A stretch of 64,000 nt of DNA, taken from positions 4,883 through 68,882 of the forward strand of contig JBHPGU010000007.1 of NCBI GenBank assembly GCA_042570265.1, in the 5' to 3' direction. Position 1 is the stretch's first letter. Each line of letters begins with the position of its first letter. The stretch is from Candidatus Omnitrophota bacterium. GTDB taxonomy: Bacteria; Omnitrophota; Gorgyraeia; Velamenicoccales; JABMQK01. Under the pieces are notes generated by a model. It saw only the letters and a program-made list of their open reading frames with translations, was not told where the DNA came from and searched no databases. Shown piece after piece: positions 55,641 to 59,237 of this stretch. The position numbers and the translations under genes were made by a program.

Positions 55641-55669
55641 TTGAAAAATTGGCCAAAATATGTTATGGT
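55641..55669 (+). promoter_or_regulatory. sigma70 promoter upstream of the riboswitch
   Basis: TTGAAA-N17-TATGGT with extended -10 TG. Confidence 0.55.
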
Positions 55670-55699
55670 TTTATTAGAAAGCGCTCTTTTTAGAGACTC

Positions 55700-55827
55700 A
55701 AAAAAAGTAAACTATCTCTTGCTTGCAGGCAAGAGTCCCTTGAGAATCAAGGGGTCGAAAGAATAGGACACAAAGCCGCGAACCTAACTCTTTGTAGCAT
55801 AAGAAGATACGGACGTCGGGTTGCCGT
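55700..55827 (+). ncRNA. GEMM-I (c-di-GMP-I / c-AMP-GMP class) riboswitch with 39-nt insert in P2
   Basis: AGTAAA-CTAT[insert]TC-GAAA-GAATAG-GACACAAAGCC...ACCTAA...TACGG..CGGGTTGCCG matches the GEMM-I layout: GAAA tetraloop and receptor, GACRCAAA junction, GTTRCC 3' end. Confidence 0.8.
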
Positions 55828-55873
55828 AATCCACACTGAAAACAATAAATTTAGGGATTACGTCCGAAATCAC

Positions 55874-55903
55874 AAAACCCATTCTTTCGAATGGGTTTTT
55901 TTT
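55874..55903 (+). terminator. Intrinsic terminator forming the riboswitch expression platform
   Basis: AACCCATTC-TTTC-GAATGGGTT followed by a T run, upstream of the RBS and ATG. Confidence 0.8.
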
Positions 55904-55928
55904 ATTGCTAACAAGAGGAACGAAAAAG

Positions 55929-56216
55929 ATGAGAAAGAAAGAAAAAATGATTTTGCTGGTAGTAATGGCCTTCTTTCTTGCTATTTTGGTAAGGCCTCTC
56001 TTTGCGGATACGACCATTTCCGGAATAACAAGGTGTCGATTGACCCATGCTATCACCATGTCAGAGGAACAAATCATAGCGGCTGAAGCAAAAAATACCG
56101 AACAAATTTCAGAAACTAAGAAAAATAGTAATTCTAATACTATTCTCCAACAGGAAGAGGTAATTTCTGAAGAAACTGAAGAAGTAGAATTGATTAATAC
56201 AGTTTGTGCTAGATAA
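55929..56216 (+). CDS. Small secreted hypothetical protein (95 aa)
   Basis: GAGGA RBS; signal peptide MRKKEKMILLVVMAFFLAILVRPLFA; acidic low-complexity middle; two Cys; the only credible plus-strand gene in the window. Confidence 0.75.
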   Translation: MRKKEKMILLVVMAFFLAILVRPLFADTTISGITRCRLTHAITMSEEQIIAAEAKNTEQISETKKNSNSNTILQQEEVISEETEEVELINTVCAR

Positions 56217-56314: not shown

Positions 56315-56359
56315 ACCCAGCACTAATTTAGGGATAAATTAGTGCTGGGTTGTTTTTTT
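56315..56359. terminator. Intrinsic terminator between convergent genes
   Basis: ACCCAGCACTAATTTA-GGGA-TAAATTAGTGCTGGGT then TGTTTTTTT. Confidence 0.8.
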
Positions 56360-56369
56360 AAAATGCCTA

Positions 56370-59237
56370 CTACAGTCTCTGCGCGGCGACCTTTAAAGGT
56401 ACGTGATAGAAGAATGTAGATCCTTGCTCAAGCATAAATTCTGTCTTTAAAGGCACCTTCGGTATGTATTTTGTAGGAAGTGTCCTTAAGTCTATCTTTA
56501 GCGTATGTTTGCCTGGTTCAATCTTTCTAAATAGATACTGTCCACCTTGATCAGTAACAATTCTTTCAGTGCCATCAATAACAATCACCACTCCACTTAC
56601 ACCCTCTTCTCCTCTATCAAACTTATTGTTTCCATTTGTATCGATAAATACAACACCAACAATCTCAACCCGGGTTGTAATACCAAAGTCGACCCTATGA
56701 GTATCCCCGTGCTTAATATATACGTCTGAATACAAAGGTGTGGTAATGTTGTAGCCTCTAGGAATCGAATTTAAATCAATAGCTACCCTCGCCTGTTTAC
56801 CAATAATGTCTTTAATGAGATAAAAACCTTTAGCGTTAGTTGTATCTGACTTTTTGGTAGTTGCGGTCAATACTACCCCCTCCACTCCTTTTTCATCTTC
56901 GTCCTTAAAGCTATCCGCGTCATCGTCATAAAATACAAATCCGTATATATGGCCTTTTGTATTCCAACGTACACCAGTGTCCCAGTTAAGCCTTGCGCCG
57001 TACCTAACCTCTGCATCTAAGCGCTTGCCTGCCCCTTCACTTTCTGGCCAAACATTGGCCACTCGGCCAGATAGATAGGCATTAATATACGGGTTCGGCC
57101 GATAGTCCAGTTCTCCTGAAAACTCAAGCCTGTCTTGTCCAGAAAGAAAACTTAAAGAAGAACTTGATTGCTCTTCATTTCGATATGAAACACGCATACG
57201 CCCGTAAAAAGGAGAATTCAGAATACGCGAATAGTAGCTAAGGCTTGTCTCTAAAGCACTGGAAGTAGCATCTTCATTGGTAATTCTATTTTTGGTATAA
57301 TTGATACTCTCATTTAAGCTAAAGTGCAAATTTCCCAATATTTGGAAACCTAAACCGCCCCTGAGTGTATTTTGATCATAGTTCGATGATGTCCCAGAAT
57401 AATATTTATTTCTTAAGCTACTATAATCTAGATATGTATTTATCTTTTTTATGAAGAAAATCCGTTTTCTTAAGCCGAAGCTCTTTGTTTCGCTTATTGA
57501 GGGAGAAACCGAACCTTTATTGTCGATTCTGCTATAACCAAAGATAGCGGTTGTAAATGGGTCCAGCTTCCAGCTTACATTGTTATTAAAAGTATAATTA
57601 GGACGCTTGGGATCATCCAGATTATAAAGATTTCTATCCCTAATGGCTGTGAAATTCTGCGAAATAGAAATATCATCAGTGGGACGAAGAGTAGCACCTA
57701 ACCTTAAAGAAGTCTGGCCTCCGGAAGCAGAACCACCTAAAGGCGAAACAAAATCCCTATCCTCTTCCCTAAAGCTTAAAGATAAGCTTCCTCTACGCAA
57801 CCTTAGACTTGCTCTAGATGCATAAGAAATATGCTCAGCACCATCATAGGCGACATCTGAATTAAACCTTAAATTTCCAATATTATAGGACGCGCCTAAA
57901 CCAAATGCATTATTAGTCAATACCGGTTTACTCAACTCTGAACCATTTGTATGTGCGTAGTAAATCTTGTAACTTGTATCCTCGCTTTGTCTATATCTAA
58001 TCCCTATGCCTTGAAGATAGGCTTCCCTTGTATTGCCTAACCCTGGAGAAAGATGAGTGTAATTGCCTTCGGGCAAACCACCCCAAAATGCAGTATAGTT
58101 AATCTTGTCATTAAACATAGGCGCATTTATCATAGCTCCTCTTAGGTCTGCGGAAGGAAACTTGTAAGCAGAAAACATGGGAGTGAAATCAAACCATCTT
58201 AAATTAATATCCTTTAAACCCCCAAAGCGCCCCTCTGTCAAACCCATGCCCAAAGATTCAATTTCATGTTGTTTATTTAGCCTTCTGGCACTTAGATAGG
58301 AATAAAAATTACCATAAGGAGTCTCACCTCGTAAGTTAAAACTCTGGCTAAATGACAGAGACTGTCTTTGCGTTGTATCAATTCTTCTTCCGGTGTGAAA
58401 AGAACTCCAATCAAAACCATAGGTGAATTTGAAAGGCTTAGATAGCCCTATTGGCTCATCCATGCTCTCCAACTTATCTCGAAAAGTGCCGAAAAACTTT
58501 CTGTGTTTACCCTGAAAATCAAATGTCCACCTGCCAGAGTCATCCCAGACATGAAAAATTCCACCTCCTATGCCTTTAGAAGTTACGACTATAGAATCCT
58601 GGTCATATCGAGATATCTCAATCTTTTGCGTAGTAATATTGAGAAACCGTTTAATGTTATTTCCTTTGAGCAAAACTGAACTATAAATCTCTAATTCTAA
58701 AAGGATATTAACTTGACCGACCCTCAACTCGTCATTTAATAAAATAACATTTTCTGTTTGCGCGATAGGTATCCCAGGCTTATCCGGAATCAATTGCGTT
58801 ATAGGCTCATAGACTGCTCTCTTCCTCGCTTGAGGCTGCACCTGCTCAGCTCTTCTCAAAGCTTTCTCTACGCCATACTCTAACTCAGCTTGGTCCAGTG
58901 CATTCTTAATTGCTGAAAACTTAGATTTAGGCTTTTGGCTTGGAGGTTCTTGGATATAAAGTTCCTTCTGGATTCTCCGTAAAAAAACCTTGGCCACCGT
59001 TGAGCCAGGGTCAATGGCCAGAGCCTTTTTAAACTCACCCATGGCATCCACAATACGACCTTGATCATAAAAAGAGATGCCTGTCTGTATGAGAAAATCA
59101 GCAGACATGCCGAATTCAGAGGCCTCCAATCTAGTTAAGCCTTCTGTGAATGGTAGGATTGTGATAGATAAAAAAGAAATAAGGGGGATTATCACAAGTA
59201 GCTTCTTTGTCCTTTTTTTTCTTAACAACCTATTCAT
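56370..59237 (-). CDS. Large envelope protein, usher-like: TPR + pilus-secretin-N-like domain + predicted beta-barrel + two SdrD-B-like domains
   Basis: N-terminal hydrophobic leader; TPR (GISFYDQGR..AMGEFKKALAIDP); IVVTSKGIGGGIFHVWD; ~500 aa of amphipathic strands rich in Y/S/F/G; GFVFYDDDAD and GVVFIDTNGN repeats. Confidence 0.65.
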   Translation of the reverse strand: MNRLLRKKRTKKLLVIIPLISFLSITILPFTEGLTRLEASEFGMSADFLIQTGISFYDQGRIVDAMGEFKKALAIDPGSTVAKVFLRRIQKELYIQEPPSQKPKSKFSAIKNALDQAELEYGVEKALRRAEQVQPQARKRAVYEPITQLIPDKPGIPIAQTENVILLNDELRVGQVNILLELEIYSSVLLKGNNIKRFLNITTQKIEISRYDQDSIVVTSKGIGGGIFHVWDDSGRWTFDFQGKHRKFFGTFRDKLESMDEPIGLSKPFKFTYGFDWSSFHTGRRIDTTQRQSLSFSQSFNLRGETPYGNFYSYLSARRLNKQHEIESLGMGLTEGRFGGLKDINLRWFDFTPMFSAYKFPSADLRGAMINAPMFNDKINYTAFWGGLPEGNYTHLSPGLGNTREAYLQGIGIRYRQSEDTSYKIYYAHTNGSELSKPVLTNNAFGLGASYNIGNLRFNSDVAYDGAEHISYASRASLRLRRGSLSLSFREEDRDFVSPLGGSASGGQTSLRLGATLRPTDDISISQNFTAIRDRNLYNLDDPKRPNYTFNNNVSWKLDPFTTAIFGYSRIDNKGSVSPSISETKSFGLRKRIFFIKKINTYLDYSSLRNKYYSGTSSNYDQNTLRGGLGFQILGNLHFSLNESINYTKNRITNEDATSSALETSLSYYSRILNSPFYGRMRVSYRNEEQSSSSLSFLSGQDRLEFSGELDYRPNPYINAYLSGRVANVWPESEGAGKRLDAEVRYGARLNWDTGVRWNTKGHIYGFVFYDDDADSFKDEDEKGVEGVVLTATTKKSDTTNAKGFYLIKDIIGKQARVAIDLNSIPRGYNITTPLYSDVYIKHGDTHRVDFGITTRVEIVGVVFIDTNGNNKFDRGEEGVSGVVIVIDGTERIVTDQGGQYLFRKIEPGKHTLKIDLRTLPTKYIPKVPLKTEFMLEQGSTFFYHVPLKVAAQRL

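Follow-up and report, generated by a model that had tools for sequence, protein, structure and literature searches.

A GEMM-I riboswitch with a four-way junction in its tetraloop stem, and probably a closing helix taken from its 3' tail, in Omnitrophota

The class-I cyclic di-GMP (c-di-GMP), or GEMM-I, riboswitches of the tetraloop-receptor type (Rfam family RF01051), such as Vc2 of Vibrio cholerae, are built from two side-by-side hairpins, with a GNRA tetraloop docked into a CCUAA/UAYGG-type receptor, a G21-C46 pair, the residues A47 and C92, and a terminator as platform. The ligand-contacting roles of G20, A47 and C92 are known from work on the Vc2 structure (PMC6140456). The same design, with an A in place of G20, recurs in a stretch of 64,000 nucleotides from a Candidatus Omnitrophota bacterium (contig JBHPGU010000007.1), hereafter the window, where the leader at plus-strand positions 55676-55906 would be a working class-I c-di-GMP riboswitch ahead of a gene for a small secreted protein, an explanation that, taken as a whole, is given a probability of roughly 0.7. 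The window departs from Vc2 in its four-way-junction tetraloop stem, in a U-A instead of a C-G pair at positions 22-45, in A20, and in a 3' hairpin at the place of P1. Within this known class its tetraloop stem makes it a new structural variant, as probably does a P1 supplied by the 3' hairpin; no published description of a four-way-junction GEMM-I, of a permuted P1 or of an Omnitrophota GEMM-I was found in the literature outside subscription journals and supplements.

Other described systems bear on single features of this RNA. The GEMM-Ib riboswitches, defined by an A at position 20 (PMC6456294), include Gs1761 and Gmet_0970 of Geobacter, which share with the window A20, C92 and the overall fold (PMC6456294, PMC6140456). 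The pgcA riboswitch, also with A20, is about 1200-fold selective for cGAMP (the 3',3' form of cyclic GMP-AMP), and an A20G change in Gmet_0970 turns the selectivity to c-di-GMP (PMC6456294). Geobacter has 13 GEMM-Ib riboswitches (PMC8835794) together with Hypr GGDEF synthases, which are recognized by GGDE[F/Y] combined with a Ser (or Thr) in the base-reading position (PMC6456294, PMC8835794), whereas in the genome of the window A20 occurs in one of nine GEMM-I copies and no Hypr signature was found. The best published proxies for a lone G-to-A change on a GEMM-I background are the Vc2 G20A mutant, which is bispecific (c-di-GMP 53 nM, cGAMP 120 nM, against a picomolar c-di-GMP value for the wild type), and the natural A20 RNA Cbe 1-2 of Clostridium beijerinckii (c-di-GMP 30 nM, cGAMP 463 nM; PMC6140456); in both, unlike in the window, the tetraloop stem is plain and P1 is normal. 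Finally, the c-di-GMP-I-GGC family (RF03167, in clan CL00126 with RF01051) is the best model for five of the eight other GEMM-I loci of this genome, two of which exceed the model's 59-bit gathering score, and differs from the window in its plain first hairpin, in a second hairpin that has no receptor and in a normal P1 made of 5' and 3' strands.

The aptamer of the window (55697-55832) belongs to GEMM-I. Its A-rich joining strand (55700-55711, from the sequence and its orthologs) contains A at position 20 (55706), followed by G21 and U22 (55707-55708) and then by AAA, and the pairs G21-C46 and U22-A45 correspond to 55707-55771 and 55708-55770. The tetraloop stem, P1b in Rfam naming and P2 in that of the Vc2 crystal, occupies 55712-55766 and comprises outer pairs (55712-55715 with 55763-55766) and inner pairs (55755-55756 with 55761-55762) closed by a GAAA loop at 55757-55760. 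Its 5' strand is interrupted by two extra hairpins, at 55716-55735 and 55737-55753, both recognized as inverted repeats and separated by U55736; with 55716-55754 removed, 55712-55715 plus 55755-55756 pair continuously with 55761-55766. There follow the GAC bulge with A45 and C46 (55767-55773, with A45 C46 at 55770-55771 and the adenines after them starting with A47 at 55772), a segment that aligns to the GACGCAAA block of RF01051 and whose ACAAAG is invariant in the orthologs, and the second aptamer hairpin (P2 in Rfam naming, 55774-55822), which the RF01051 alignment and covariation place together with its receptor, CCUAA at 55783-55787 and UACGG at 55808-55812. At the 3' end, GGGTTGCCG (GGGUUGCCG as RNA) is present with the C92 equivalent at 55824, where a G and this C (55823-55824) align to the 'gC' that precedes the P1 3' strand in RF01051; this C would be expected to act as C92 does in the Vc2 structure, by pairing with one of the ligand's guanines (PMC6140456). 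The residues expected of GEMM-Ib are in place, A at 55706 and C at 55824. The two hairpins, the restored stem, the pairs 21-46 and 22-45, A20, the receptor, the 3' sequence and a downstream terminator are as a previous sequence-only reading of the window had described them.

Covariance searches agree on the family and show where its standard model strains. The match to RF01051 (55735-55828) reaches 36.3 bits, with a gathering score of 35 bits and an E-value of 1.2e-5 in the 401-base stretch searched, but its alignment mis-pairs the first hairpin: the 3' arm of the second extra hairpin is forced into the 5' strand of the stem and non-standard pairs are flagged, a mis-pairing of the interrupted stem that accounts for the marginal score. 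The second hairpin and the tetraloop receptor conform to the family as they stand, and a GNRA loop at the canonical distance, the 21-46 and 22-45 pairs and the AAA/GAC internal loop are obtained only with the extra hairpins branched out. The expectation that this RNA is probably missed by covariance models is wrong in part: the window just passes, as do 15 of 20 related two-hairpin variants (39.6-60.8 bits), and the orthologous leader of genome G002 scores 55.8 bits in an alignment that spans the entire insert; of the other five variants, one stops just below the cut-off at 34.4 bits and four have RF03167 as their best model and fall under its threshold.

Two accounts of the 39-base insert had been offered from sequence alone, namely extrusion as a multiway junction from a functional aptamer, or inactivation of the aptamer by a palindromic element, and a comparison of orthologous leaders had been proposed. 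In a DNA search of 41 related genomes, the whole leader was found in G001, of the same genus as the window (78% identity), and in G004 (75%) and G002 (72%), which represent two other genera of the family. Both extra hairpins are kept with compensatory changes in all three. The first has 7-8 base pairs in the window and G001, with a U-A to C-G replacement, and in G004 and G002 it shortens to 3-4 base pairs, CCC(C)/GGG(G); the arms of the second read CCCUUGA/UCAAGGG in the window, UCCUGG/UCAGGA in G001, CCUGAG/CUCAGG in G004 and CCUGAA/UUCAGG in G002. A covariance model (R1) made from these four sequences, with the four-way-junction structure supplied to it, provided further relatives, and among 16 complete two-hairpin sequences compensatory changes on both sides occur in 24 of 36 pairs, including 7 of 7 in the first extra hairpin, 5 of 6 in the second, and 5 of 10 and 5 of 5 in the two helices of the second aptamer hairpin. 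None of 500 shuffles reached the observed covariation score.

On this comparative evidence, the insert is an inherited and structurally conserved architectural feature, and extrusion from a functional aptamer is the account that the orthologs and many relatives support. An insertion of a mobile or palindromic element was considered and rejected, since the insert is single-copy and its hairpins covary across relatives: no second copy of the 39-mer is present at up to 4 mismatches in the 1.79-Mb, 74% complete assembly of the window's genome (G000), and the separate hairpins give near matches only at chance level (for the 18-mer, two matches at 3 mismatches, with about one expected by our own estimate). 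A decaying aptamer, inactivated in this way, would fit the Rfam score barely over threshold with its mis-paired first hairpin, the missing canonical P1 and the A at position 20 instead of the usual G; it is contradicted by the covariation of the extra hairpins, which the orthologs and the majority of the order's GEMM-I RNAs retain with compensatory changes, and by the conservation of promoter, receptor, C92, terminator and downstream gene, and must be regarded as very improbable.

The geometry of the junction is tight, with linkers of 0, 1, 1 and 0 nucleotides both in the window and in the sequences of another family, labelled f2. The extra hairpins would branch off between the outer 4 and the inner 2 base pairs of the GAAA-capped stem to form a four-way junction, in which the outer stem would stack on the inner one to give a single helix of 6 base pairs, the canonical length, with the GAAA loop docked in the CCUAA/UACGG receptor; off to the side, the two extra hairpins would be stacked on one another. 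Linkers of 0-1 nucleotides would allow this arrangement, and an inner stem of only 2 base pairs must rely on coaxial stacking and docking. In favour of the structure, standard pairs fill 95.7% of cells in the 16 sequences, as compared with 34.7-45.5% in controls with partners slid by 1-3 columns. Two points weigh against it. The alignment used for the pair counts was fitted to the model's structure, which inflates pairing; and ViennaRNA finds its minimum, a fold in which the outer stem is missing, at -41.8 kcal/mol, 5 kcal/mol below the proposed fold of the window (-36.8), on energies that exclude tertiary and ligand contributions. The corresponding values for G004 and G002 are not meaningful, because MAFFT mis-registers the second extra hairpin there.

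The two-hairpin design extends well beyond the family of the window. Model R1 matched 24 of 27 genomes of the order, and once aligned, the 24 best matches comprised 19 with two hairpins between outer and inner stem, four canonical ones and one with a different insertion. Of 151 genomes sampled from the class, 104 were matched by a second covariance model (R2), with eight clear two-hairpin variants from other families among 16 aligned matches. Moreover, the inner pairs and the GNRA loop covary (UC-GAAA-GA, CC-GUAA-GG, CU-GAAA-AG, CC-GCAA-GG). A degenerate pattern scanned across 185,579 species genomes gave 53 matches, of which 27 loci are genuine GEMM-I by R2 and show the two-hairpin design, and the remaining 26 look like chance, about 35 chance matches having been estimated beforehand. 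The titles of the genuine loci read Candidatus Omnitrophota or Omnitrophica, Ca. Velamenicoccus archaeovorus, 'uncultured Planctomycetia/Planctomycetales', one Pseudomonadota metagenome-assembled genome and one unclassified bacterium; Omnitrophota is itself a member of the PVC group.

Some individual loci deserve mention beside this distribution. Another GEMM-I of the window's genome (L002, G000:C16:12291-12428; 67.9 bits) carries a 53-nucleotide insertion in the distal loop of its second hairpin, and its plain tetraloop hairpin resembles the window's second extra hairpin nearly letter for letter, with one loop base fewer, a likeness not shared by the corresponding hairpin of G001. The locus L047 (G008:C17:4287-4434), an ortholog of the window's leader ahead of the same small-protein gene, lacks the two 5' hairpins; its first hairpin has, on the 3' side, a larger insertion of another kind. 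In public sequencing data, only three runs contain about 4% of sampled words and two DNA contigs cover 55700-55850 and 55673-55823; a 163-nucleotide contig with adapter-like flanks, from a sediment metatranscriptome library (X1), contains a relative's aptamer (55703-55836, about 90% identity) that departs from the window at, among other sites, the compensatory pair 55717 T>C / 55734 A>G, all of these being contigs that carry no information on ends, strand or expression level.

The second structural departure concerns P1, which had looked weak by eye and proved to be absent in canonical form: no pair is formed in any of six registers (-3 to +2), and the P1 3' strand has no 5' partner. This does not bar membership of RF01051, because P1 lies outside the Rfam model. 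In its place, the 3' tail holds a hairpin (55825-55862; CGUAAUCC / GGAUUACG), recognized from the inverted repeat, its fold energy and its relatives, in which 55825-55832 pairs perfectly with 55855-55862 and whose start coincides with the base at which the P1 3' strand should begin. In the window it folds at -9.6 kcal/mol, a value equalled by none of 300 shuffles. The hairpin is present in all nine leaders of this gene type (window, G001, G002, G004, G092, G026, G016, G024 and G008, with G092 from a different family of the class), where an unvarying CCGU right behind the second hairpin and an unvarying CGU further downstream enclose arms that differ and stay complementary; the segment folds better than shuffles in seven of the nine at the 0.05 level. 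Its CG/CG closing letters are those found at the top of P1 in the RF03167 consensus.

From these comparisons, P1 would not be built from the 5' and 3' ends of the aptamer; the 3'-tail hairpin would replace it as a strand-permuted closing helix, its first pairs, C-G and G-C, lying directly after the ligand-contacting C. Less favourable to such a substitution are the closing CG/CG pairs, which appear in the minimum-energy fold of only six of the nine leaders and give no covariation evidence because they never vary. Other candidates for this end of the RNA were dropped: an unanchored search for any 3' hairpin after C92 was replaced by the anchored fold because it did not discriminate, hairpins of at least 6 base pairs being found almost everywhere; a pairing of ACGUCCG (55860-55866) with CGGACGU (55810-55816) was seen in the window only; and a helix closing leader and linker, as in the f2 orthologs, is not conserved, by eye, in the window's family.

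Two neighbouring patterns touch this 3' region. The locus L070 (G092:C11:11812-11939 and downstream) combines a two-hairpin stem with a 3' hairpin after CCGU, and its terminator stem-loop shares the same 18 letters with that of the window. Compared with L028 and L037, the window leader (55697-55832) looks chimeric, since its 5' half (U22-A45 and the two-hairpin stem) resembles the pilin-type riboswitch of f2 and its 3' half (second hairpin, CCGU with the 3' hairpin, terminator) the f2 leaders of the small-protein type.

Position 20 led the sequence-only reading to label the aptamer as c-AMP-GMP-type, a label that the distribution of the residue does not sustain. Among the orthologous leaders, A is found in the window and G001 and G in G004 and G002; all eight other GEMM-I copies of the genome have G20; and of the 51 distinct GEMM-I sequences collected, in which the two-hairpin variant is over-represented, 46 have G, four A and one C. 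At 55706 the window agrees with an environmental DNA contig of 97% identity from a public run. Compensatory changes distinguish the two A20 species elsewhere, so the RNA remained under structural selection after the G-to-A change, and A20 is read, from this phylogenetic pattern, as a lineage-specific substitution fixed in the window's genus. Departures from G20 are sporadic in the phylum: the two-hairpin L042 (G007:C1:1219929-1220061 and downstream) has A20, a U at the C92 position and two tandem repeats of about 44 nucleotides inserted in the 3' strand of its second hairpin, which makes it a copy in decay or else an A20/U92 variant; L068 (G070:C1:530078-530174), from another family, is of canonical length with A20; and the two-hairpin L111 has C at position 20.

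In the rival reading, A20 would recognize the adenine of cGAMP and the genus would control this one gene by cGAMP through a selective, GEMM-Ib-like riboswitch. It draws on the defining role of A20 and on the switch to c-di-GMP by A20G in Gmet_0970 (PMC6456294), as well as on the persistence of A20 in two species of the genus and in the environmental contig; on the other side stand the G20 of the same-gene orthologs in two sister genera and of the eight other copies of the genome, and the bispecific, not selective, behaviour that A20 alone confers in Vc2 G20A and Cbe 1-2 (PMC6140456). As for a source of the ligand, a survey of GGDEF domains returned no Ser/Thr Hypr signature among 10 matches in G000 or among 18 translated (of 25) in G001, G002 and G004, and no SMODS cyclase match in G000; the search for Hypr GGDEF or DncV-like synthases that had been suggested came back empty in this genome, where the absence of a cGAMP synthase is not proven because the assembly is 74% complete, a point that has to be held against the c-di-GMP reading since such an enzyme could be missing from it. 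So must be the GGDEF domains with Asn at the base-reading position, of unassigned specificity, in G000 (C12:24355-24831 and C12:26157-26633, tandem genes), G001 (C3:3586-4068, with Asn together with GGDEF) and G002 (C26:1203892-1204368), which could be claimed for the cGAMP reading; they occur, however, also in G002, whose riboswitch has G20. All in all, cGAMP selectivity appears quite unlikely. Slightly more doubtful still is a broader version, in which the A20 copy would be a true cGAMP or dual sensor in a phylum without a known cGAMP pathway, fed by the Asn-variant cyclases, with its pocket closed by the 3' hairpin on the four-way-junction scaffold.

By analogy with the A20 RNAs that bind c-di-GMP at 30-53 nM (PMC6140456), the ligand is most likely still c-di-GMP, probably bound with lower affinity than by G20 RNAs, and cGAMP may cross-bind. 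A20 is not evidence of a cGAMP regulon here, a reading that is possible but unsupported.

Both the promoter and the terminator of the leader are conserved. A sigma-70-type promoter found by motif scan (55641-55669; -35 TTGAAA, a 17-nucleotide spacer and a TG-extended -10 TATGGT) has hexamers, and a block around the -10, that are invariant in the four orthologous leaders, placing the transcript start presumably near 55676. A 5'-terminal hairpin GAAAG/CUUUU (55677-55690) is paired in all four sequences by RNAalifold and, being sequence-invariant in the orthologs, offers no covariation evidence. Downstream, an intrinsic terminator (55874-55906, stem-loop 55874-55899), identified by inverted repeat, fold and scan, consists of an 11-base-pair stem, a UUUC loop and a U-tract; its 5' arm and loop, CCCAUUCUUUC, are invariant in the four orthologs and its 3' arm varies. 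In all four leaders RNAduplex ranks the 3' half of the GAAA stem (55755-55767 in the window, against 55878-55890) first among the upstream partners of the terminator's 5' half, which makes this stem half the candidate antiterminator strand. The duplex is better than shuffles in the window (-14.3 kcal/mol; fraction of shuffles at least as good 0.007) and in G001 (-17.7 kcal/mol; 0.000) only.

A ligand-OFF terminator switch is the most economical model that these pairings suggest. The strand proposed as antiterminator is part of the aptamer and should become unavailable on ligand binding, a point in favour of OFF: the ligand would lock the aptamer, the 3' half of the stem would be held and the terminator would form, whereas without ligand this half would pair with the terminator 5' half and loop and the RNA polymerase would read through. 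Several results pull in the opposite direction. The antiterminator duplex is weak in G004 (-10.9 kcal/mol; shuffle fraction 0.107) and G002 (-10.5 kcal/mol; 0.213); the minimum-energy fold computed without constraints contains the terminator, so that the antiterminator is not thermodynamically favoured; RNAalifold proposes for the four orthologs a competing helix between the 3' strand of the stem and the 3' tail; and the f2 orthologs seem, by eye, to use a different antiterminator pairing based on linker and terminator complementarity. The same results lend themselves to a rival with the same aptamer and another logic or platform, in which the ligand would prevent termination (ON), or the 3' hairpin would be a platform element only and the aptamer would work without P1. 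The location of the antiterminator strand and the start of the 3' hairpin exactly at the P1 position, with CG/CG letters as in the P1 of RF03167, argue in the other direction, and this rival is unlikely, if somewhat less so than cGAMP selectivity. A further antiterminator candidate, aptamer GGGUU with terminator AACCC, is by eye compensated between the window and G001 and broken in G004 and G002, and was dropped.

The regulated gene (55929-56216, ribosome-binding site at about 55913-55919), defined by its open reading frame and homologs, encodes a small secreted protein of 95 amino acids with a signal peptide, for which no Pfam family was found. Homologs lie downstream of GEMM-I leaders in seven other genomes, among them G001, G002, G026, G016, G024 and G008, and have one motif in common immediately behind the signal peptide and another at the C-terminus. 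In G001, G002 and G004, recA is upstream of the leader on the opposite strand; the complete small-protein gene, with the gene of a large SdrD_B-type protein downstream, is present in G001 and G002, and the G004 contig ends inside the small gene, after its first six codons. In f2, leaders of the small-protein gene have a plain stem and the two-hairpin type precedes a prepilin-like gene. Six such f2 loci (L028, L030, L032, L036, L038 and L039) have a two-hairpin GEMM-I that is followed by a terminator of its own, a long second leader and, some 250-330 nucleotides downstream of the aptamer, a gene whose product begins MRS(R/K)KGFTL..., an N-terminus of the prepilin type. Beyond the small gene of the window, a 16-base-pair hairpin followed by T's (56315-56350) separates it from a convergent gene of 955 amino acids with SdrD_B and TPR domains (56370-59237, minus strand); terminator-like on the plus strand, this hairpin may serve both flanking genes.

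For the family, these comparisons mean that the GEMM-I fold tolerates, and that a whole phylum prefers, a four-way junction in the very helix that carries the tertiary-contact tetraloop, and that its closing helix can apparently be obtained from the 3' tail alone. Both structural points bear on which parts an aptamer needs, on the models used to annotate uncultured phyla and on the engineering of GEMM-based sensors. On the other hand, A20 alone should not be taken to signify a cGAMP riboswitch without a synthase or binding data. For Omnitrophota, the riboswitch would link c-di-GMP to a conserved small secreted protein.

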